Of a DNA stretch of 44,074 nucleotides, positions 3,582 through 38,456 are shown piece by piece. Source of the stretch: a virus; the UHGV virus genome UHGV-0043902. The stretch is one strand, 5' to 3'. The translations under genes were made by a program, and so were the position numbers. Below the pieces are notes generated by a model. The model searched no databases, had not been told where the DNA came from, and saw only the letters and a list, made by a program, of their open reading frames with translations. The stretch's first letter is position 1. Each line of letters begins with the position of its first letter.

Positions 3582-4204
3582 TTTTGAATCACCGTTGTTG
3601 CATAGGAATAAATAAAAGGGAGTTTTACATATTTCTGGTCAATGGCATCTTTCAGAAAATAGCCTATACCATCACCATATTCTGGTATCTGAATAGAAAA
3701 AACACTGTCCGATACAGTCACACTCACATCAAAAGTGTGCTGCAACGGCGGGTCTATCCCATTTTTTCCGTGAATAAACCGCGCCACACGTCGCTTTAAC
3801 CAGTCAATGCAGAAATGCGAACCGTCAGCCTTATAAAAATTCCACGTTAATATTCGTTTGAAATAATCATCAGGTACATACGATGCCTGCCCCGGAACGT
3901 AATTCCGCATTGCGGCATACGGGATCGTATTGTATTCAATGGTATCGTATGCGCCGCGTGCAATAGCCTCCTCGGAAACCTGTAGTAAAGGCCTTTCAAC
4001 GCCATAAATCCCGAGTGCAATCCAGTCCAGCAATTGCCCGGTTATTGATTCCGATGTCCAGCATGGCAATGCCAGATTGTTGAGTGAATCGAGGTATTCC
4101 TGAGCAATTTCATTGTATGCATCAAAGAACGCAACAACATTCGGATCATCTCTGTACTGCACAAATGGATAAGCAGGGAGAATTTTCTCAGTCAGATATT
4201 GCAT
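3578..4204 (-). CDS. Baseplate/tail protein (P2 gpI / Mu gp48 / e14 YmfQ-like position)
   Basis: ORF track 3578..4312; internal ATG at 4204 (MQYLTEKILPAYPF...) avoids overlap with the upstream J-like gene; position after the J-like gene. Confidence 0.5.
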   Translation of the reverse strand: MQYLTEKILPAYPFVQYRDDPNVVAFFDAYNEIAQEYLDSLNNLALPCWTSESITGQLLDWIALGIYGVERPLLQVSEEAIARGAYDTIEYNTIPYAAMRNYVPGQASYVPDDYFKRILTWNFYKADGSHFCIDWLKRRVARFIHGKNGIDPPLQHTFDVSVTVSDSVFSIQIPEYGDGIGYFLKDAIDQKYVKLPFIYSYATTVIQK

Positions 4205-5414
4205 ACTTGTTGACCTGAACCTGTGATGCCACCGTTGAAAAATAGGAATAGGTATCGCCATAAACCAGGCTTGTGTCTTTCGCCGGAAGAACAATATGGC
4301 CGTTAATACCAATGCTCACACTGATTGTTGAGATCAACGTCGCATCAACCAGCAACCTGACGGAACTGGTAAAAATATCCTGGATACGCAGAAGATTTAT
4401 CGGGTGTCCGACTTCAATTGAATTGATGTAATCAGCAACGTTTTGCTGCACAGCCATAGCAATACCCGCCGGATCAACATAATCATCAGACACCGTGTTC
4501 CAGGTGATTAGCACCATGACGTTTTGTGATGACGGGATAACGAACGGTACCTGATAAACGTCCGGCGAAACGGTTATTGAAACCGTGCGTTTTTCCACTG
4601 CCGCACCGGATGGATTGCTAACATCGTTGGTCAGTTTCGAAATGTCCGGTACAGATTTGTAAATCGCATAAGCCACATCATACGGATCACCGCCACCAAC
4701 AACCGCAACCCATTTCCCCAGCGACGACTGCCGGAAAGAAATCAGGTTTTCGCGCACACCGCTTACTGATTTGAGCATCGCTTTAAAGCAATCCGGTGTT
4801 CCCTGCACACCAAACATGCCGGACTCCATGACTTCGGCGCGGTAAGATGCCCACGTCTGCGCCTCCTGACCTGGCATCCCTGCGGTAAGGTTCGTGCATT
4901 TTACAGGCTGGTCTTTGGGTACTGATGTAATAACCTGCGTCACGGTCCCTTCCGGTACAGCCCATGAGCCTGACGTTGTGGCCACACAGTAAACTGGCTC
5001 AGTCTGCCCACTTTCCGGCACCACCGTATCGCGGGAAACTGCATACTGGTAGTTACCGTCTCCAACCACAAATCCTTTAGGGATACCAAATCCCGGCAAC
5101 GCCTCAAACACCACGTATACCGCCGTATTTGTACTTAATCCCTTCTGTGCTCCATAAATGTTTCCGAGTTGCATCAGTAACGGAATATTCGCGCCGTATG
5201 GGCTTACAGAGTTAATAAGGTCCACCCGCGCCTGGTCTATTAATGCCAGCGCCCCTACTGCCGTGCTGGCAAGGTCTGTAATAAGTCCTGCCGGAAGGTT
5301 GGCTGTATATCCAGGTACTTTTTCAGCAACTCTGGTGATAAGATTCGCGAGCAAATCATTGGGTGGCGTAGGCTGCGCACCCGCACTGGTCATAGTAATT
5401 GGTATTTCTGACAT
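4188..5414 (-). CDS. Baseplate J-like protein (P2 gpJ / Mu gp47 family)
   Basis: About 408 aa; ORF track 4188..5426 begins with TTG, ATG at 5414 preferred; size and position match baseplate J. Confidence 0.6.
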   Translation of the reverse strand: MSEIPITMTSAGAQPTPPNDLLANLITRVAEKVPGYTANLPAGLITDLASTAVGALALIDQARVDLINSVSPYGANIPLLMQLGNIYGAQKGLSTNTAVYVVFEALPGFGIPKGFVVGDGNYQYAVSRDTVVPESGQTEPVYCVATTSGSWAVPEGTVTQVITSVPKDQPVKCTNLTAGMPGQEAQTWASYRAEVMESGMFGVQGTPDCFKAMLKSVSGVRENLISFRQSSLGKWVAVVGGGDPYDVAYAIYKSVPDISKLTNDVSNPSGAAVEKRTVSITVSPDVYQVPFVIPSSQNVMVLITWNTVSDDYVDPAGIAMAVQQNVADYINSIEVGHPINLLRIQDIFTSSVRLLVDATLISTISVSIGINGHIVLPAKDTSLVYGDTYSYFSTVASQVQVNKYAISD

Positions 5415-5435
5415 AGTTAATCTCAAGGATAAGTT

Positions 5436-5975
5436 ATGAAGAAATTAATTTCATTGCTAATTGCATCCACTCTTTCATTTTCAGTATGCGCTCAAGAAGA
5501 AGACAATTATCATACCCGTCTAATAAGAGCTGCCTGCAACGATGCCATGCATAAATTACAGCTTCAATATGGTCGGCGTTTTATATGCCATACTGATAAT
5601 TTTACTGCCGGAAATATGAATGCCGCATACTTATCTGATTCTGTTTATGGGAAATCGGGAATAATGTTAATGAAATTCGGTAATGTTTATTATGATAATC
5701 CCAGCCATCCAACCCATGACACATTACATTATTCCTACAATATACAAGACATGAATACGGCCATTTCTTTAATTGTCAATGGGGGCGGTTTAAACGATCA
5801 GCAAATAAATTATCAAATTTGTAAAAAAGCCATTACAGATACCAAGGAGAAAATAAAGAAAAACAATAAAGATTATCTAGACAAAAAGATAGATCATAAA
5901 ACTTATGAGATAATGAATTCAGTTTTCAATGACTCGATAAAAAATTTTGAAAAATGTGTAGCTGAAAATAAGTAG
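5436..5975 (+). CDS. AT-rich moron encoding a secreted protein of unknown function (Sec signal peptide, Lys-rich C-terminus)
   Basis: 179 aa; N-terminus MKKLISLLIASTLSFSVCAQ-EE is a Sec signal peptide; SD aaggataagttATG; composition visibly AT-rich compared with flanking phage genes; opposite strand to the tail operon. Confidence 0.7.
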   Translation: MKKLISLLIASTLSFSVCAQEEDNYHTRLIRAACNDAMHKLQLQYGRRFICHTDNFTAGNMNAAYLSDSVYGKSGIMLMKFGNVYYDNPSHPTHDTLHYSYNIQDMNTAISLIVNGGGLNDQQINYQICKKAITDTKEKIKKNNKDYLDKKIDHKTYEIMNSVFNDSIKNFEKCVAENK

Positions 5976-6239
5976 TTGTTGGACTTTACAACCGCGCCCA
6001 ATTGAGTATGATTGGGCGAATGAGGCGTCGAAACCTCTTTCACGCGGCCTAGACCAACCCCGTCAGTGTTGGATTTTTTATGCCTACAATTCAGTGATGG
6101 CACAATGTGCGGTCACATCCCCGATCAATGTCGGGAGGGCGACGAATACAACACCCGAAAGGGAAATAAGTCCGCGGTTTCGTGAAGCCGTTTCGAACCT
6201 CCTGGCACCACAATTTCGAAAAAATTTCACGAGGTTTCT

Positions 6240-6797
6240 ATGACCAGCCAATTAATTCCCGTATTCAACGGCATTGTTTCAAACGAAACTACTCTTCTCT
6301 GCAACGCTCGCGATCTGCACACCTTTCTCGAAGTAGGTAAACGCTTTGCTACTTGGATCACCGAGCGAATCGGCGAGTATGAATTCATAGAAAATCAGGA
6401 CTACATAGCTATTTCCCAAAAACGGGAAATAGGTCACGGACGAGGGAAAAAGGACTACCACCTCACCCTAGACACTGCCAAAGAGCTGGCAATGGTCGAG
6501 CGCAACGAAAAAGGCCGCCAAATCCGCCGATACTTTATCGAATGCGAGAAGAAGCTGCGCGAAGATACCACCAGCACACAATCCCCTCTGAATGTTGACA
6601 TCATCATGCGCGTCAGAAACGGTTCTGTTACCCACATTGAGCACCACAAATCAGGCTCAGTTATAACCACAGAATGGGCAATTCACTTACTACGCAAAAG
6701 TGGATGGATTGTCATGCCACGCGATGAACTTCTTAACACGCCACTGGCCCAACTGATGCACGAAAACTTGCCTCAAACCGGAACCTGCGTCCGGTAA
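6240..6797 (+). CDS. Putative antirepressor-like protein (AntA/KilA-N-like N-terminal domain)
   Basis: 185 aa; N-terminus LIPVFNGIVSNETTLLCNARDLHTFLEV...WITERI..YEFIENQDY resembles phage antirepressor N-domains; SD gaggtttctATG; opposite strand within the tail region, analogous to P22 immI. Confidence 0.45.
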   Translation: MTSQLIPVFNGIVSNETTLLCNARDLHTFLEVGKRFATWITERIGEYEFIENQDYIAISQKREIGHGRGKKDYHLTLDTAKELAMVERNEKGRQIRRYFIECEKKLREDTTSTQSPLNVDIIMRVRNGSVTHIEHHKSGSVITTEWAIHLLRKSGWIVMPRDELLNTPLAQLMHENLPQTGTCVR

Positions 6798-7120
6798 CTG
6801 GTTCCGTTAAAAAACACAACATCGATGTTATAGGTGGGGTTTTCTGCCCCATCTACCTTTGAAATTGCCAGCGATGCAAAATACCCGGCAAACTGTTGCT
6901 GAACCATGTTCACATAGTAGTCCGGGTAAATTTGCTGCACGATGCACTGCTGCGCTGGAATACCGTAATTCGCGTAAAACGGCGACTCCCCCAACCCCAG
7001 CTTTAACGTCTGAATGAGCGTCGTCAGCCAGCCGTAGGAGAAATCACCGTTGGCGTCAGATTCTACTGCAACCCATTTTTTGTTGCCGTTCGCGTCGGTG
7101 ACGCGGCCCCATGTTCTCAT
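6773..7120 (-). CDS. Hypothetical protein, 115 aa; positional candidate for baseplate wedge (gpW/gp25-like) but no motif support
   Basis: ORF track; lies between the V-like and J-like genes; start codon 3 nt after the stop of a small upstream ORF. Confidence 0.35.
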   Translation of the reverse strand: MRTWGRVTDANGNKKWVAVESDANGDFSYGWLTTLIQTLKLGLGESPFYANYGIPAQQCIVQQIYPDYYVNMVQQQFAGYFASLAISKVDGAENPTYNIDVVFFNGTSYRTQVPV

Positions 7121-7123
7121 GCG

Positions 7124-7288
7124 TCAACCTTTCAAGTAAATTAGGGTACCGGTAACCAGAGCGGTACAAATGATCCACGCTACTGGAGTCAGAATATGCC
7201 GAATACCCCGACATACTGCGATTATTCTCGCAGCTTTATCTGCTCCTTGCGTTGTCGTTTCAGCCTTATGAATCAGTTCGCTATCCAT
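7124..7288 (-). CDS. Small membrane peptide (54 aa, C-terminal hydrophobic helix), function unknown
   Basis: Manual translation MDSELIHKAETTTQGADKAARIIAVCRGIRHILTPVAWIICTALVTGTLIYLKG; overlaps an upstream 30-46 aa hydrophobic peptide ORF (about 7290..7430) in an ATGGATAG coupling arrangement. Confidence 0.25.
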   Translation of the reverse strand: MDSELIHKAETTTQGADKAARIIAVCRGIRHILTPVAWIICTALVTGTLIYLKG

Positions 7289-7573: not shown

Positions 7574-8287
7574 TTAACCCGGATTTGGTTTCTTCGACGT
7601 GATCGTACTGCCACCACTTTGAACACCAGTCACATCGTGACTGTGGCTGCTGGCGCTCACGCCGTTGATAACTGCATCTTTCTCGACCTTAAGAGGACCA
7701 ATCAGCGAAGCAGTTGTATCCTTCATCTGGGCTTTGTCCTGGACGATCTGTCCGTTGAGATGAATTATCCCGCTCAGGAAAATATCTTCGGCCTCAAGAT
7801 AAACAGCCTTCGACTTTTGCCTGATTTCTTCCGGAGCTACCGTTACCGAGCTACTACCGTCCTCTGTTTTGAGAATTGCACCGTCAGGGCCGTACAAAAC
7901 GATTTTTCGCGGATCTTCATCGGACCAGTCCTTGTTTGCCAGCGGTACGAAAAACAGGGGAGTGAGCGACATCGAGTAAGAAAGCGTCGCCATACCTGTT
8001 CCCAGCCCTGATATGCCGCGCAGGGATACATCAGCGGCAATTGTTACTCCTCGATCGCCCGGCTGTATCGGGTAACGAATATACGGGAATGTGGCGACAG
8101 GGATTGTTATCTGCGGAAAGTTGATCCCCTCTGGCAACATATCAAACTGAACGGTCACTATCTGCCCACTGACATCGACAACATGGCAGGGCAATTCACG
8201 GCCTTTAAGCTCGGCTTGCTGGTTGCCAGAACTGGTCATCATCTCCGACAGCGTTCGGAGAAACGGTAATTTTTGAGCGTTTGACAT
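7574..8287 (-). CDS. Baseplate assembly/spike protein (P2 gpV / Mu gp45-like)
   Basis: 237 aa; position and size; overlaps the upstream gene by 1 nt. Confidence 0.5.
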   Translation of the reverse strand: MSNAQKLPFLRTLSEMMTSSGNQQAELKGRELPCHVVDVSGQIVTVQFDMLPEGINFPQITIPVATFPYIRYPIQPGDRGVTIAADVSLRGISGLGTGMATLSYSMSLTPLFFVPLANKDWSDEDPRKIVLYGPDGAILKTEDGSSSVTVAPEEIRQKSKAVYLEAEDIFLSGIIHLNGQIVQDKAQMKDTTASLIGPLKVEKDAVINGVSASSHSHDVTGVQSGGSTITSKKPNPG

Positions 8288-20089: not shown

Positions 20090-20903
20090 GTTTGCCCTTC
20101 TCCGTTAAAAATTCGTCGGGTAGTTTCTGAGGGGCGTAGATCGGCAGTGCATCGCAACTGCAATAAACCTCCTCCCCGGCAGCAGTGATTTCGTCATAAA
20201 AACCATATACGGGCTTAATCAGCCCCTGCTCCAGCGCCCACGAATCGCGGAGGAGGTAAATTTTCTCGTCGCGCTCTTTGTGGTCCTGTCGGTATTTGTA
20301 GCCCGGACGCCGCCAGTTAGAATGCCAGCGCAGAGCAATCGCTCCACTCTGAACAGCCAGCAGATACTTAACGTTGTTTGCCAGCTTATGCCCCTGATCA
20401 ATTGCCACCCGGCGACTGATAAAATCCATATCCTTCACGGACTTCTGAAAACCGGACTTCACTTCCCGGCGATCAATTTCGCTCACCCCGTCAGGCGGAA
20501 TGGCCGTAACCCATCCCTGAAAACGCTGTATGGTTTTCTCGATAGCCTGTTCGCGGTTGAGTTTTATCAGGTTGGCACTGGCGAAAATTCGCCTGTCGAG
20601 TTCCTTACGAAACTCAGGTTTCAGTTTTTCAACAGTGATTTTTTTAGGGCCATCAGGAGGCTGATCCCGTAATGCCCCGCCGTCGATGACAAGACGGCTG
20701 TAGATAGCGGTGAGATGTTTTCTGGCTACGGTATCATCAGGGGTTTCTCGCTGAGCGGCTACACGGAGTTTCCGGCACCATTCGAGCAATGATTTTTCGC
20801 TATCCCACCCGTGATTTACGTAGTAGTTAACGGCATCCGTCAGAACCTCATACAGCGTCCTGATCCGTTTCTTCTTCCTCACCGCCCGGCTGGAAATTGC
20901 CAT
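20070..20903 (-). CDS. Head morphogenesis protein (SPP1 gp7 / Mu F-like minor head protein)
   Basis: ORF track 20070..21041; start at ATG 20903 with SD aggagacgcctgATG; follows the portal. Confidence 0.45.
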   Translation of the reverse strand: MAISSRAVRKKKRIRTLYEVLTDAVNYYVNHGWDSEKSLLEWCRKLRVAAQRETPDDTVARKHLTAIYSRLVIDGGALRDQPPDGPKKITVEKLKPEFRKELDRRIFASANLIKLNREQAIEKTIQRFQGWVTAIPPDGVSEIDRREVKSGFQKSVKDMDFISRRVAIDQGHKLANNVKYLLAVQSGAIALRWHSNWRRPGYKYRQDHKERDEKIYLLRDSWALEQGLIKPVYGFYDEITAAGEEVYCSCDALPIYAPQKLPDEFLTEKGKREFNRA

Positions 20904-22284
20904 CAGGCGTCTCCTGCTTCGGTGGTTCATAATTCGCCAGCGCGTCCACATCAATGATGAGTGGAGCTTCGCCATAGGTTTGCGTGGCATTAACAAGGCT
21001 TGCCAGCCATTCAGTGACGGCGGCACGGTTTTCAGGATCAACCTGTGGCGACACGGCAGAGAAAAGTGCTATCGCCTGTTGAATCACTTTACTGTCGCTT
21101 TCCCGGCGTTTGTCCGGCGACTCCTCCACCAGCTCCTGCCATGTCGCGGTAAATTCACGTCGCCACTGGTAAAACGTGGTTTTATAGTCATCAGTTATGA
21201 TGTCCGGGTAATCATTTTTCAGCGACTGATAAAATTCCTCGTTCCAGGCGATGTACTGCACCAGGCGTTCGAAATAATCCATCACGGGTTCAATCTGCTG
21301 GCGTACACCATCGATATACTGGCTGATAGCTTTCGAGTCCTCCTTACCTTCACCGAATCCGTTACTGAACGCTTCTTCCTTGATAATAATGGCCGGAACG
21401 TCACTCCCGGCGGCAATATCAGCAATGATGTTGTCGCGGGATGTATTCAGCGCCCCGTCGATGTTTTGCAGGTTCAGTGAACTTACATCTTCGTCTTTTC
21501 CAATACTCAACACGCCTTTATTTTTGGCGGCTTTCACGTTTTCCCTTTTACGCCCCGTGGCAGCAGCCATGATCCCGTCAATTTTCGAACCGTTCTGCAC
21601 AACTTTAGCCACCAGTACGCCTGCCTTCTGGCTGACGAGATCATTCGCCTCCATCGTATTGATATAGGATTTCAGGGAATAAAGAACTCGCTGAAACACG
21701 CTTCGCCCGGTGAATCCGAACGATGAACTCTGAAACTCCAGATAAATCGGTGTGCCGTTGAAGATTTTCAGTGTGCGTGACGGATGCCAGTCTTTTCCGC
21801 CAATCTTCAGTTTTTTATTGGCTTCCTGGAAAAACGGGCTGTTGGGGTTCTGGTCAGTCACCATCGAACCGGAAGCGTTCAACGGGTCCCACGCGTTGAT
21901 ATACACGTCATCTTCTGTCAGTCCGAACGTCGGAAGCGGTTCACGACATGAAACACTGTCGGTGCCCACGCCGATCGCTGCGGCACCGTAGCAACGAGAC
22001 AGAAAAAACAGATTTTTAATCTTCTCGTTAACCTTCATACGTTCCCATACCTCCTGGAAACGCCGCACAACCCGCTCGTCAGGGTCTGTCTCCACGTTGT
22101 ACTGGCGCGGCTTACACATCGCCATCAGTATGGGTTTTTCGACAAGTTTCCCGCCCAGCGGGTGGTACTGCCACAGCAGTTTACACAGTTCATAGCCAAT
22201 GTCGGTTCCCGGCTGAATTTCTTCAGCCTCAAGAATGCGCATCAACGAAGAACTGAGATTTACAGAAATCTCGATCTCAGCCAT
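20848..22284 (-). CDS. Portal protein
   Basis: 478 aa ORF immediately downstream of terminase large subunit; acidic C-terminus. Confidence 0.6.
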   Translation of the reverse strand: MAEIEISVNLSSSLMRILEAEEIQPGTDIGYELCKLLWQYHPLGGKLVEKPILMAMCKPRQYNVETDPDERVVRRFQEVWERMKVNEKIKNLFFLSRCYGAAAIGVGTDSVSCREPLPTFGLTEDDVYINAWDPLNASGSMVTDQNPNSPFFQEANKKLKIGGKDWHPSRTLKIFNGTPIYLEFQSSSFGFTGRSVFQRVLYSLKSYINTMEANDLVSQKAGVLVAKVVQNGSKIDGIMAAATGRKRENVKAAKNKGVLSIGKDEDVSSLNLQNIDGALNTSRDNIIADIAAGSDVPAIIIKEEAFSNGFGEGKEDSKAISQYIDGVRQQIEPVMDYFERLVQYIAWNEEFYQSLKNDYPDIITDDYKTTFYQWRREFTATWQELVEESPDKRRESDSKVIQQAIALFSAVSPQVDPENRAAVTEWLASLVNATQTYGEAPLIIDVDALANYEPPKQETPDGNFQPGGEEEETDQDAV

Positions 22285-29204: not shown

Positions 29205-29279
<75 letters not shown>

Positions 29280-29282
29280 ATA

Positions 29283-29358
<76 letters not shown>

Positions 29359-31477: not shown

Positions 31478-31725
31478 NNNNNNNNNNNNNNNNNNNNNNN
31501 NNNNNNNNNNNNNNNNNNNNNNNNNNNNNNNNNNNNNNNNNNNNNNNNNNNNNNNNNNNNNNNNNNNNNNNNNNNNNNNNNNNNNNNNNNNNNNNNNNNN
31601 NNNNNNNNNNNNNNNNNNNNNNNNNNNNNNNNNNNNNNNNNNNNNNNNNNNNNNNNNNNNNNNNNNNNNNNNNNNNNNNNNNNNNNNNNNNNNNNNNNNN
31701 NNNNNNNNNNNNNNNNNNNNNNNNN
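31478..31725. other. Assembly gap (248 N); true length and content unknown
   Basis: Run of n characters in the sequence. Confidence 1.
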
Positions 31726-31769
31726 CAGATGACGATCAGGGCGATTAACATCGCCTTTTGCTGCTTCAT
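31726..31769 (-). CDS. hokD: hok-family type I toxin gene, 5' fragment (HokD/RelF-like N-terminus), interrupted by the assembly gap
   Basis: Minus strand ATG at 31769 then MKQQKAMLIALIVI(C) exactly as the Hok/Gef N-terminal transmembrane start; ORFs reported across the gap are artefacts. Confidence 0.7.
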
Positions 31770-32054
31770 AGCCTGCTTCTCCTTGCCTTTCGGCACGTAA
31801 GAGGCTAACCTACATGTGTCTAGCATGAAATCGGCCTCAGATTAATGTTAAGCGTCTTGCAGGACGCGTAATGTTAACTGGGGCTTTTCTCTATCTGCCT
31901 TTTGGTGATCATGCCTGAGGCAGATAGCCTCAAGCACCCGCTGCAATTCTACTTAACTCTCCTTTTCCCGCAAACCGTTTTTATCCCCAGCGGCAAATCG
32001 AATACACCACCAGCGCCACCGCGATTCCTACCGTTGTGAATGCTTCAGGCCAGG

Positions 32055-37887: not shown

Positions 37888-37994
37888 AGCCAACCTTCTA
37901 CGTTATGTCTCGAGCAAATATTAGCTCCGCTAATTTTAAAGATCAATAGTCAGACTATCTTTGATAATATTGGTAAAACAAATAAACTCTATGT
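37888..37994. promoter_or_regulatory. Divergent immunity promoter/operator region (racR leaderless promoter and ydaS promoter)
   Basis: TTGATA-N16-TAAACT ends 7 nt before the racR ATG with no SD (leaderless, like lambda pRM-cI); palindrome aatattagc-tcc-gctaatttt; CTAATATTT-type motif also recurs near the early-left promoter. Confidence 0.45.
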
Positions 37995-38456
37995 ATGAAA
38001 AAAACACGCGAAGTGATTGCAACCCCAGAAGCGAGCAAGAATTTAAAAGCCGCATGGAATGCAAGAAAAAAAGAGCTGAAGCTGACTCAAGAGCTGGCGG
38101 CTGAGTTGTTGGGATTCGAATCTCAAGGCACCGTTAGCCAGTATCTGAACGGCAAGATACCGGTAAATACCGACGCTGCGCTAAAATTTGCGGCTCTGTT
38201 AAAGGTAAAACCAGAGGACATTCGAGAAGACCTTAAAGACTTAATGAATTACGTAAGATCATCAGATACTTATGATGATAGCTTTTCAGGCAAAGGATGG
38301 AGGCTGGTCAATGAAGAACAGGCAGAGTTACTTAACCTCTTCGAGATTCTACCTGCGTCAGAAAAAGCCAAACTCCTTAACCAGCTACGTGGACTAAACA
38401 AGCTCTACGAGGAAGCCTTCGAGAACATGCTGGCACTAAAGAAACGTAACCAGTAG
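37995..38456 (+). CDS. racR: Prophage repressor, RacR-like (XRE-family HTH)
   Basis: 153 aa; HTH ..LTQELAAELLGFESQGTVSQYLNGK..; divergent from the cro-like gene. Confidence 0.6.
   Translation: MKKTREVIATPEASKNLKAAWNARKKELKLTQELAAELLGFESQGTVSQYLNGKIPVNTDAALKFAALLKVKPEDIREDLKDLMNYVRSSDTYDDSFSGKGWRLVNEEQAELLNLFEILPASEKAKLLNQLRGLNKLYEEAFENMLALKKRNQ

Follow-up and report, generated by a model that had tools for sequence, protein, structure and literature searches.

Organization of the ant locus

The sequence analysed here, virus genome UHGV-0043902 (44,074 nucleotides (nt); hereafter the window, meaning this whole stretch), is 100% identical to part of a prophage of Escherichia coli M8 (NZ_CP019953.1) and belongs to the Rac-SA53-like type (KU052037). 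On its plus strand, oppositely oriented to the flanking minus-strand tail genes, lies ant, which encodes a 185-amino-acid (aa) protein of an antirepressor family. An open reading frame (ORF) of 48 codons ends at the start of ant in an ATGA overlap, and an original prediction had taken it for a small regulator translationally coupled to ant. We found instead that the 48-aa "gene" before ant is most likely a folded regulatory RNA with a variable loop that matches the ant ribosome-binding site (RBS). The features on which this reading rests are the following, all on the plus strand:

5985..6012: sigma-70-like promoter (-35 TTTACA 5985-5990, 16-nt spacer, -10 TATGAT 6007-6012)
6022..6044: upstream box copy, made of b1 (TCGAAA, 6028-6033), in the loop of a hairpin GAGG 6022-6025 / CCTC 6034-6037, and a1 (TTTCACG, 6038-6044), directly after that hairpin
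6054..6079: terminator-like hairpin, CCAAC 6054-6058 / GTTGG 6068-6072 with a 9-nt loop, then an A and six T (6074-6079)
6097..6243: 48-codon ORF (49 aa if read from GTG 6094), judged non-coding, overlapping the RNA element
6130..6211: sRNA-Xcc1 three-way junction (Rfam match and our own covariance model)
6130-6138 / 6198-6206: helix P1, closing the junction
6141-6172: helix P2, with a conserved AAUACAA bulge and a GNRA-type GAAA loop
6174-6177 / 6188-6191: helix P3, GCGG / CCGT, closing a 10-nt loop
6178-6187: antisense box a' of the Xcc1 RNA, the P3 loop TTTCGTGAAG
6192-6197: antisense box b' of the Xcc1 RNA, TTCGAA, the single-stranded joint after P3
6214..6235: target region at the ant RBS, made of b2 (TTCGAAA, 6215-6221) and a2 (TTTCACGAGGT, 6225-6235, which includes the Shine-Dalgarno (SD) motif GAGG 6231-6234)
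6240..6797: ant, 185-aa antirepressor-family protein, AntA domain at residues 22-89 (nt 6303-6506)

Judged by its domain matches, the 185-aa product is an AntA-family, antirepressor-like protein. Pfam AntA (PF08346) matches it with an E value of 1.7e-27 and 96.2 bits against a cut-off of 27, over profile positions 2-68 of 68; PHROG anti-repressor families match as well (for example phrog_14211 at 1.4e-66), and RefSeq names the product 'antA/AntB antirepressor family protein'. The N-terminal domain had been described beforehand as AntA/KilA-N-like: the AntA part of that description holds, while KilA-N (PF04383) gave no match in Ant at E<=1. AntA is the sole Pfam domain of the protein, with neither P22_AR_N nor P22_AR_C found, and a sequence search of PDB with Ant returned no relatives. 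By tblastn the AntA N-terminal domain occurs in 780 phage records and full-length Ant in few, the C-terminal half being common to Rac-SA53-like prophages only. The putative binding and inactivation of a phage repressor by Ant is taken from annotation only.

The 48-codon ORF is a probable by-product of the leader

Both ORFs exist as originally predicted (6097..6243 and 6240..6797), as does their overlap at 6240-6243. We compared the leader with those of 80 IMG/VR loci encoding Ant relatives and of five annotated loci, 47 distinct 300-nt leaders in all. Of these, 40 close the frame leading into ATGA after no more than 13 codons. Another four have 26-29 open codons, but their first start codon comes only at -35 or -38. 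A long frame is present in three: two are identical to the window and the third, L022, passes through the central RNA segment in a different frame and would give an unrelated peptide. L027, the closest non-identical relative with the same RBS box, has 12 open codons. Within the window's own class the loop varies in length by 1-2 nt, i.e. by indels that are not multiples of three. The small ORF is thus not conserved at homologous loci, the point on which coupling to a 48-aa regulator had been set beforehand to stand or fall, and we regard that proposal as unlikely.

The ATGA itself is the Met-Thr start of Ant (ATG ACC in the window). TGA follows the ant ATG in 46/47 distinct leaders, with or without an upstream ORF, because Ant begins with Met-Thr (ATG AC.). 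No Shine-Dalgarno sequence precedes ATG 6097, where the predicted duplex with the anti-SD is +2.2 kcal/mol versus -6.6 kcal/mol for that of ant, and the ORF has no match in Pfam or PHROG. Four other ORFs of 39-55 aa overlap 6066-6340, in other frames or on the opposite strand, so there is nothing unusual in an open frame at this place. Its origin can be traced to a hairpin, P4, that nearly all other relatives carry between the RNA and the RBS and most of which is missing from the window and from L027. In the relatives (L004, L019, L040 and others; compared with window 6206-6225), P4, e.g. CACCACT-CAGAT-AGTGGT, carries stop codons; the 48-codon ORF would exist because this hairpin was lost with its stops in this lineage, a loss that also brings the target boxes 12 nt closer to the Xcc1 element. 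From these comparisons we read the 48-codon ORF as a by-product and not a gene.

A conserved structured RNA precedes ant

By family match and covariation, the stretch read as 48 codons is a conserved structured RNA. Rfam sRNA-Xcc1 (RF02221) matches 6130-6214 (+), i.e. 26-110 nt upstream of ant. The match spans the full model (positions 1-87 of 87) and scores 69.7 bits, above the gathering score of 53 (E 1e-10). That ant is regulated from just upstream, as had been proposed, stands in so far as a conserved structured RNA lies there, and falls in so far as it called for a coupled small protein. We built a covariance model of our own (R1) from the window's class and the Rfam-type structure, annotated by hand, and used it to re-align 34 ant-locus elements; it scores 107.5 bits on the window element. 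In this model-based alignment, which holds 29 distinct sequences, 99.1% of cells are standard pairs and 11/19 base pairs are changed on both sides. When partners were slid by 1-3 columns, pairing fell to 28-51%, and no shuffle reached the observed covariation score. R1 replaced a MAFFT alignment of 19 elements, from which RNAalifold recovered only three pairs because MAFFT had placed the P1 strand out of register from one class to another.

The fold of the whole leader is more stable than those of its shuffles (z = -3). As plain minimum free energy (MFE) folds, by a method without pseudoknots, both this leader and the short upstream RNA (z = 0.4) gave little information. Within the upstream element, GAAACCUC (6030-6037) is perfectly complementary to GAGGUUUC (6231-6238, the ant SD and spacer), and this pairing dominates the MFE fold of the full leader; of it, only ACCTC/GAGGT is kept in class relatives.

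The element also keeps its position. Among the 80 IMG/VR loci, 70 have Xcc1 upstream of ant, four have the Rfam families isrK and C4 there, and six have an N-terminally truncated ant; Xcc1 is thus at a fixed upstream position in 70 of the 74 loci with an intact ant N-terminus. The four others (L045, L049, L050 and L084) encode Ant homologues of 57-60% identity and carry isrK followed by C4 at the same position.

Three sites change together

The antisense boxes of the Xcc1 RNA are complementary both to the ant RBS and to the upstream box copy. Against b2/a2, a'b' is predicted to form a duplex of 10 + 7 base pairs over Xcc1 6177-6198 with -17.6 kcal/mol (0.7% of shuffles as good), and against b1/a1 one over Xcc1 6175-6199 with -21.4 kcal/mol (1.7% of shuffles as good).

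The P3 loop is the only hypervariable segment in the otherwise 92%-identical class of the window, and its sequence changes between classes along with the box at the RBS. The loop/RBS box pairs are as follows:

Window: TTTCGTGAA/TTCACGAGG
L040: CTTTGAAG/CTTCAAAGG (also as CTTTGAAG/CTTCAAAG)
L035: CATAGAT/ATCTATGG (also as CATAGAT/ATCTATG)
L038: CTTATTTG/CAAATAAGG (also as CTTATTTG/CAAATAAG)
L019: CTTTTTGC/GCAAAAAG
L048: CTTGCTG/CAGCAAG
Further pairs: CTATGCG/CGCATAG and CTGACG/CGTCAG

Because the register of the boxes relative to SD and ATG differs between classes, we assessed loop-RBS pairing with alignment-free tests of own versus cross pairs rather than with a column-wise pseudoknot count. 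A contiguous complement of the loop of at least 7 nt occurs downstream in 18/19 distinct ant-locus elements and upstream in 18/19. The longest string common to both flanks reaches at least 7 nt in all 19, compared to 33% of cross pairs, and is exactly the loop-complementary box in 14/19 and the b box in most others. Across 22 classes the mean duplex energy was -12.6 kcal/mol for own pairs versus -8.8 for cross pairs, and none of 20000 permutations reached the own-pair mean. Loop and joint, RBS boxes and upstream boxes change together across phage classes.

Promoter, short upstream RNA and cassette layout

Upstream of the boxes, a consensus scan recovered the promoter at 5985..6012 with 10/12 matches and a predicted start near 6019. 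A comparable -35/-10 pair lies just upstream of b1 at the same relative place in every leader class. Flanks that are otherwise unrelated become similar from the -35 onward, and similarity to ant loci of Stx phages sets in at about 6022. After a1, a hairpin and a T-run are kept in position in all leader classes, with differing stem sequences. A simple terminator scan did not call the hairpin at 6054-6079, because its loop exceeds 8 nt; it is the probable 3' end of a short RNA (about 60 nt) carrying b1/a1.

The -10 is covered by an inverted repeat (5996-6017), which we rejected as an operator because it has no second copy in the window and is degraded in close relatives. The operator-like repeats that had been suggested for 5976-6096 come down to this one repeat, which relatives do not conserve.

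The order is therefore promoter, b1/a1 with the terminator-like hairpin, Xcc1 RNA (about 82 nt), b2/a2 over the SD, and ant. In our judgement 5985-6797 is probably a self-contained RNA-controlled antirepressor cassette with a constitutive-looking promoter.

Relation to known RNA-immunity systems

RNA control of antirepressor genes has been described for the c4-ant system of P1 and P7 (Citron & Schuster 1990, as summarised in PMC12197685), and 'c4 antisense RNA' and 'c4-a1b1' motifs are on record (PMC2864571). As in P1/P7 immI (c4 - icd - ant), a structured RNA lies upstream of the antirepressor gene on the same strand, its boxes a' and b' are complementary to an RBS target (a2, b2) and to an upstream copy (a1, b1), and related phages differ in their boxes, a difference on which the heteroimmunity of P1 and P7 is based. 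Three things set the window apart from P1: the target is the RBS of ant itself, with no icd-like ORF in between; Ant is short and has AntA only; and the cassette lies among tail genes. The C4 RNA is built like Xcc1, with a closing stem, two hairpins (one capped by a tetraloop, the other by a variable loop), a single-stranded joint and a CaCC tail, and occupies the identical position upstream of orthologous ant genes. Xcc1 nevertheless belongs to a different covariance-model family, with a shorter P1 and a longer P2 that has a conserved bulge. C4 (RF01695; clan CL00128) gave no match at E<=5 in 5400-7200, R1 gave none at E<=1 against the C4 elements of L045, L050 and L084, and Rfam lists no clan for RF02221.

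The Gifsy-1 locus isrK - orf45 - anrP (Hershko-Shalev et al. 2016, PMC4825925) has, between isrK and the antirepressor-like gene anrP, an ORF of 45 codons (orf45) that overlaps anrP as AUGA. Translational coupling was demonstrated there experimentally, orf45's amino-acid sequence is not conserved, and IsrK activates translation of anrP (PMC4825925). Both loci have a promoter before a short terminated RNA (a probable one in the window) with sequence in common with a downstream target, and read-through would lead into a structured leader and then an antirepressor-like gene; the window too has a small ORF with an AUGA overlap. The model of isrK (RF01394) has no match in the window, where an analogous hairpin, box and terminator-like element are present. 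In isrK the b1 box occupies a hairpin loop and is followed by the a1 box and a terminator; the window matches this layout in hairpin 2, the single strand and the position of the terminator. Compared to Gifsy-1, the window has a shorter upstream element with one hairpin, Xcc1-type leaders do not conserve the small ORF, and activation by the short RNA, demonstrated there, would here follow by analogy. From the spacing in related loci such as L045, we infer that Gifsy-1 orf45 overlies a C4-like element.

Phage P4 immunity (seqA / CI RNA / seqC) and N15 anti-immunity (CA RNA - antA), both reviewed in PMC3632133, likewise rely on three RNA elements: upstream a sequence resembling IsrK, then a processed RNA of C4-like type, and downstream the target through which lytic or antirepressor genes are controlled. 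Those systems act mainly by premature transcription termination, whereas here the target overlaps the SD, so that a translational block would be the simplest reading.

The locus had also been compared to immI of P22 (mnt - arc - ant, sar RNA). What survives of that comparison is the location, an antirepressor cassette in the late region away from the primary immunity region; a small RNA contributes to control in P22 and would do so here as well. The arc/mnt logic does not survive: the neighbouring ORFs (179 aa and 48 codons) have no Arc/Mnt-type match, Ant has no P22_AR domain, and the RNA lies upstream on the same strand and not, as sar does, in cis-antisense on the opposite strand. The microRNA-size RNA 24B_1 of Phi24B, reported to affect an anti-repressor gene, was set aside as a different locus and mechanism. 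In its layout, then, the cassette is a control module of the P1/P7/P4/N15/Gifsy type built on a different RNA family, and not one of the P22 arc/mnt type.

The sRNA-Xcc1 family beyond ant

An exact-pattern scan for the P2 core, with one genome per species, returned at least 120 loci, and a second model found the full-length element in 93/100 species-level loci among the matches listed. Hosts include Pseudomonas, Xanthomonadaceae, Pasteurellaceae, Neisseria, Azospirillum, Desulfovibrio and Pectobacterium, as well as a few metagenome-assembled genomes of Acidobacteria, Verrucomicrobia, Planctomycetes and Bacteroidetes. For 67 distinct loops, a complement of at least 8 nt was present in the own downstream 70 nt in 49% (8% for cross pairs) and in the own upstream flank in 54% (13% for cross pairs). 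The start codon of an ORF follows the complement within 13 nt in 55/92 usable loci. From 48 distinct downstream ORFs we kept 38 after manual removal of near-duplicates, of several spurious-looking (GC-rich or low-complexity) ORFs and of two short truncated ones. Among these 38 proteins Pfam found Bro-N (13), Phage_pRha (5), P22_AR_N (3), ORF6N (3), SymE_toxin (2), AntA (1), KilA-N (1) and HTH (1).

Some phages or genomes hold two Xcc1 cassettes with different loop and box, or isrK+C4 plus Xcc1, each before its own gene (L003 2571-2660 and 3110-3195; L033 2164-2249 and 2377-2462; L072 2377-2461 and 3260-3349; L054 1355-1542 and 2372-2460; also L178, L104 and L156). This suggests that double cassettes are orthogonal addresses within one genome.

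In X. campestris an sRNA-Xcc1 of about 88 nt has been seen by Northern blot (PMC2996969), and many chromosomal targets have been predicted for it in Xanthomonas and Xylella (PMC2996969; PMC12189769). That RNA belongs to the same covariance-model family and has the same layout of promoter, box with terminator, and RNA. It differs from the window in that the Xanthomonas copies lie in integron cassettes, are described as a trans-acting virulence-linked sRNA (PMC2996969) and have no downstream RBS box. Six Xanthomonadaceae loci (L089, L098, L106, L110, L121 and L169) keep the promoter, a GGAGCGTCGAAACTCC hairpin, the terminator and the Xcc1 RNA, and in them the a1 box covaries with the P3 loop.

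The literature treats sRNA-Xcc1 as a trans-acting sRNA of Xanthomonas/Xylella, as an element upstream of symE in integron cassettes, and as one upstream of an ORF6N gene in APSE phages; we found no link of the family to c4-type control in the searchable literature. In the APSE-7 records LR794147.1 and LR794151.1 (our hits H109-H110) the depositors annotate 'putative a' / b' antisense regions'. That annotation concerns a C4+isrK pair upstream of a Bro-N gene, and for other APSE phages the same authors note Xcc1 upstream of an ORF6N gene, drawing no connection between the two.

Genomic setting

The antirepressor gene does lie among tail genes, as originally predicted, flanked by Baseplate_J and other baseplate genes on the opposite strand. 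The neighbouring genes are the following:

4188..5426, minus strand: Baseplate_J gene (Pfam, PHROG and RefSeq), one flank of the ant cassette
5436..5975, plus strand: cargo ORF of 179 aa with a signal-peptide-like N-terminus and no family, outside the ant cassette
6773..7120, minus strand: phrog_7986 gene (115 aa, tail module), the other flank of ant
7574..8287, minus strand: baseplate gene, beyond the phrog_7986 gene

The 179-aa ORF is not part of the ant cassette, since it is missing upstream of the same cassette in L022, L004, L010 and L027. The gap from Baseplate_J to phrog_7986 (4188-7120) is a cargo hot spot whose inserts differ among related prophages: the signal-peptide ORF of 179 aa, additional small ORFs, an LprI-family gene, and ant in intact or decayed form. 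Rac-SA53 has ant plus two extra ORFs there, ETEC4090 has an LprI-family gene and a truncated ant, and E. coli W has ant without its leader and N-terminus. At its 3' end ant shares 25 nt (6773-6797) with the convergent 115-aa tail-module gene, and minus-strand late transcription must run antisense across the entire ant cassette.

A Rac-type immunity region lies at 37991-38452 (+) and neighbours, with a helix-turn-helix (HTH) repressor divergent from YdaS/YdaT-like genes, and with kil, recE, bet and ralR; this HTH repressor is the presumed target of Ant. LexA control of ant, as in Gifsy antirepressors, was dropped, as no CTGT-N8-ACAG-like site was found near 5950-6250. The whole window has 22 such sites when one mismatch is allowed, versus 12.5 expected from shuffles, none of them near the ant cassette.

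Elsewhere in the window, a hok/sok-type toxin-antitoxin locus lies at 31610-31939 (-) (Rfam sok, 120.9 bits), adjoining an annotated Hok/Gef coding sequence. Two adjacent tRNA genes (RefSeq: tRNA-Gly and tRNA-Thr) are found at 29208-29358 (-), between a DUF1133-family gene and the lysis genes. A 478-aa head-block protein at about 20848-22284 (-) is named 'anti-CBASS protein Acb1 family' by RefSeq, an annotation only.

Proposed mechanism and alternatives

We consider it likely that the Xcc1 element, the RBS boxes and the upstream box copy jointly gate ant. By analogy with P1/P7 c4, P4 CI, N15 CA and Gifsy-1 IsrK, pairing of a'b' with b2/a2 would occlude the ribosome-binding site and no Ant would be made. 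The upstream b1/a1 RNA would compete for a'b' as a decoy, or anti-antisense, RNA and thereby release translation, as IsrK does for anrP. The Xcc1 element might be cut out as a discrete RNA of about 85 nt that would also act in trans on incoming phages with the same box, in which case the hypervariable boxes would set the specificity (heteroimmunity) groups, as they do between P1 and P7.

Several observations weigh against this mechanism. The upstream copy is predicted to bind more strongly than the RBS copy (-21.4 versus -17.6 kcal/mol), so that the default state could be ON rather than OFF. Cross controls show a high background (25-33% at >=7 nt), to which the relatedness of the sequences contributes, and the structure counts were taken from an alignment fitted to the model. 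A plain MFE fold of the whole leader, by a method without pseudoknots, gives another long-range pairing. Xanthomonadaceae cassettes have no matching box at the RBS of the downstream ORF and no obvious cis target, so RBS occlusion would not be universal in the family. Ribosomes may pass through the leader of this phage, given the precedent of Gifsy-1 orf45. Co-transcription, repression versus activation, cis versus trans action and RNA processing are points that we infer by analogy; RNase P-type processing to a species of about 77 nt and repression in trans are traits of the C4/CI class, for which Xcc1 offers only the RNA of about 88 nt seen by Northern blot in Xanthomonas (PMC2996969).

Three other explanations of the leader deserve weighing. 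The 48-codon ORF could be translated, as a leader ORF or a small regulator, with termination at ATGA coupling ribosomes onto ant. The ORF and its overlap do exist, and Gifsy-1 orf45, at the equivalent position before anrP and with the same AUGA overlap, is required for anrP translation while being conserved in nucleotides and not in amino acids (PMC4825925). We still regard coupling as unlikely, because the frame is closed within 13 codons in most leaders, that of L027 included, L022 reads the RNA segment in a different frame, loop indels break the frame, ATG 6097 has no SD, the ATGA is there regardless of any ORF, no family matches the ORF, and the ORF is present only through the loss of P4 in this lineage. 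It is somewhat more doubtful still that Xcc1 is an independent trans-acting sRNA with host chromosomal targets, its position by ant being incidental. The RNA detected on Northern blots, the predicted chromosomal targets (PMC2996969; PMC12189769) and the Xanthomonadaceae cassettes without a cis target at the downstream RBS would agree with it. But a fixed distance upstream of ant in 70/74 intact loci and a linkage to antirepressor-type genes across phyla do not look incidental, and host targets would constrain the loop, which is the most variable part of the RNA, so that three-site covariation is not expected from them. Trans action on host genes may be an extra role of the Xcc1 RNA.

The explanation to which we give the least credit, and which we hold to be very improbable, is that the three-way junction is a riboswitch-like leader sensing a ligand or a protein, with the box complementarity as its expression platform (an anti-SD or attenuator). 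It would account for the conserved internal loop of P2 (AAUACAA ... GAAU) and the GNRA-type loop, both unexplained by the antisense model, and the stability of the whole leader compared to its shuffles speaks for it too. However, the downstream genes are regulators of mobile elements and not metabolic genes, the specificity boxes are hypervariable, and C4/isrK systems, not riboswitches, typically carry a duplicate decoy box that has its own terminator. RNA gating of ant through the Xcc1 boxes is thus the reading that we retain.

Implications

The architecture of a C4-type RNA lock was known; what is new is that it is here probably built on the sRNA-Xcc1 family. We lean toward the broader view that sRNA-Xcc1 is a large unrecognised branch of RNA immunity of the P1/P4/N15 type: a modular 'addressable lock' (promoter, decoy RNA, antisense RNA and RBS target) that would gate Bro-N, Rha, ORF6N, P22_AR, AntA, KilA-N and SymE genes in prophages, integrons and islands, in Proteobacteria and beyond, with hypervariable 7-10-nt boxes as orthogonal specificity groups. 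An Rfam family flagged by annotation pipelines but lacking an accepted role would also gain a testable function and a target rule, by which the P3 loop and the 3' joint pair with boxes close to the SD of the gene that follows. The locus carries a warning for annotation as well: a short ORF over a structured leader RNA, or an ATGA 'overlap' due to a Met-Thr start, can readily pass for a coupled gene.

Whether a prophage and those resident with it stay silent depends on antirepressors. An RNA lock in place of a protein repressor or LexA would change how induction is studied. If this is true, prophage cross-talk and heteroimmunity would be predictable from box sequences, which would serve as an address code telling which phages could silence each other's antirepressors.

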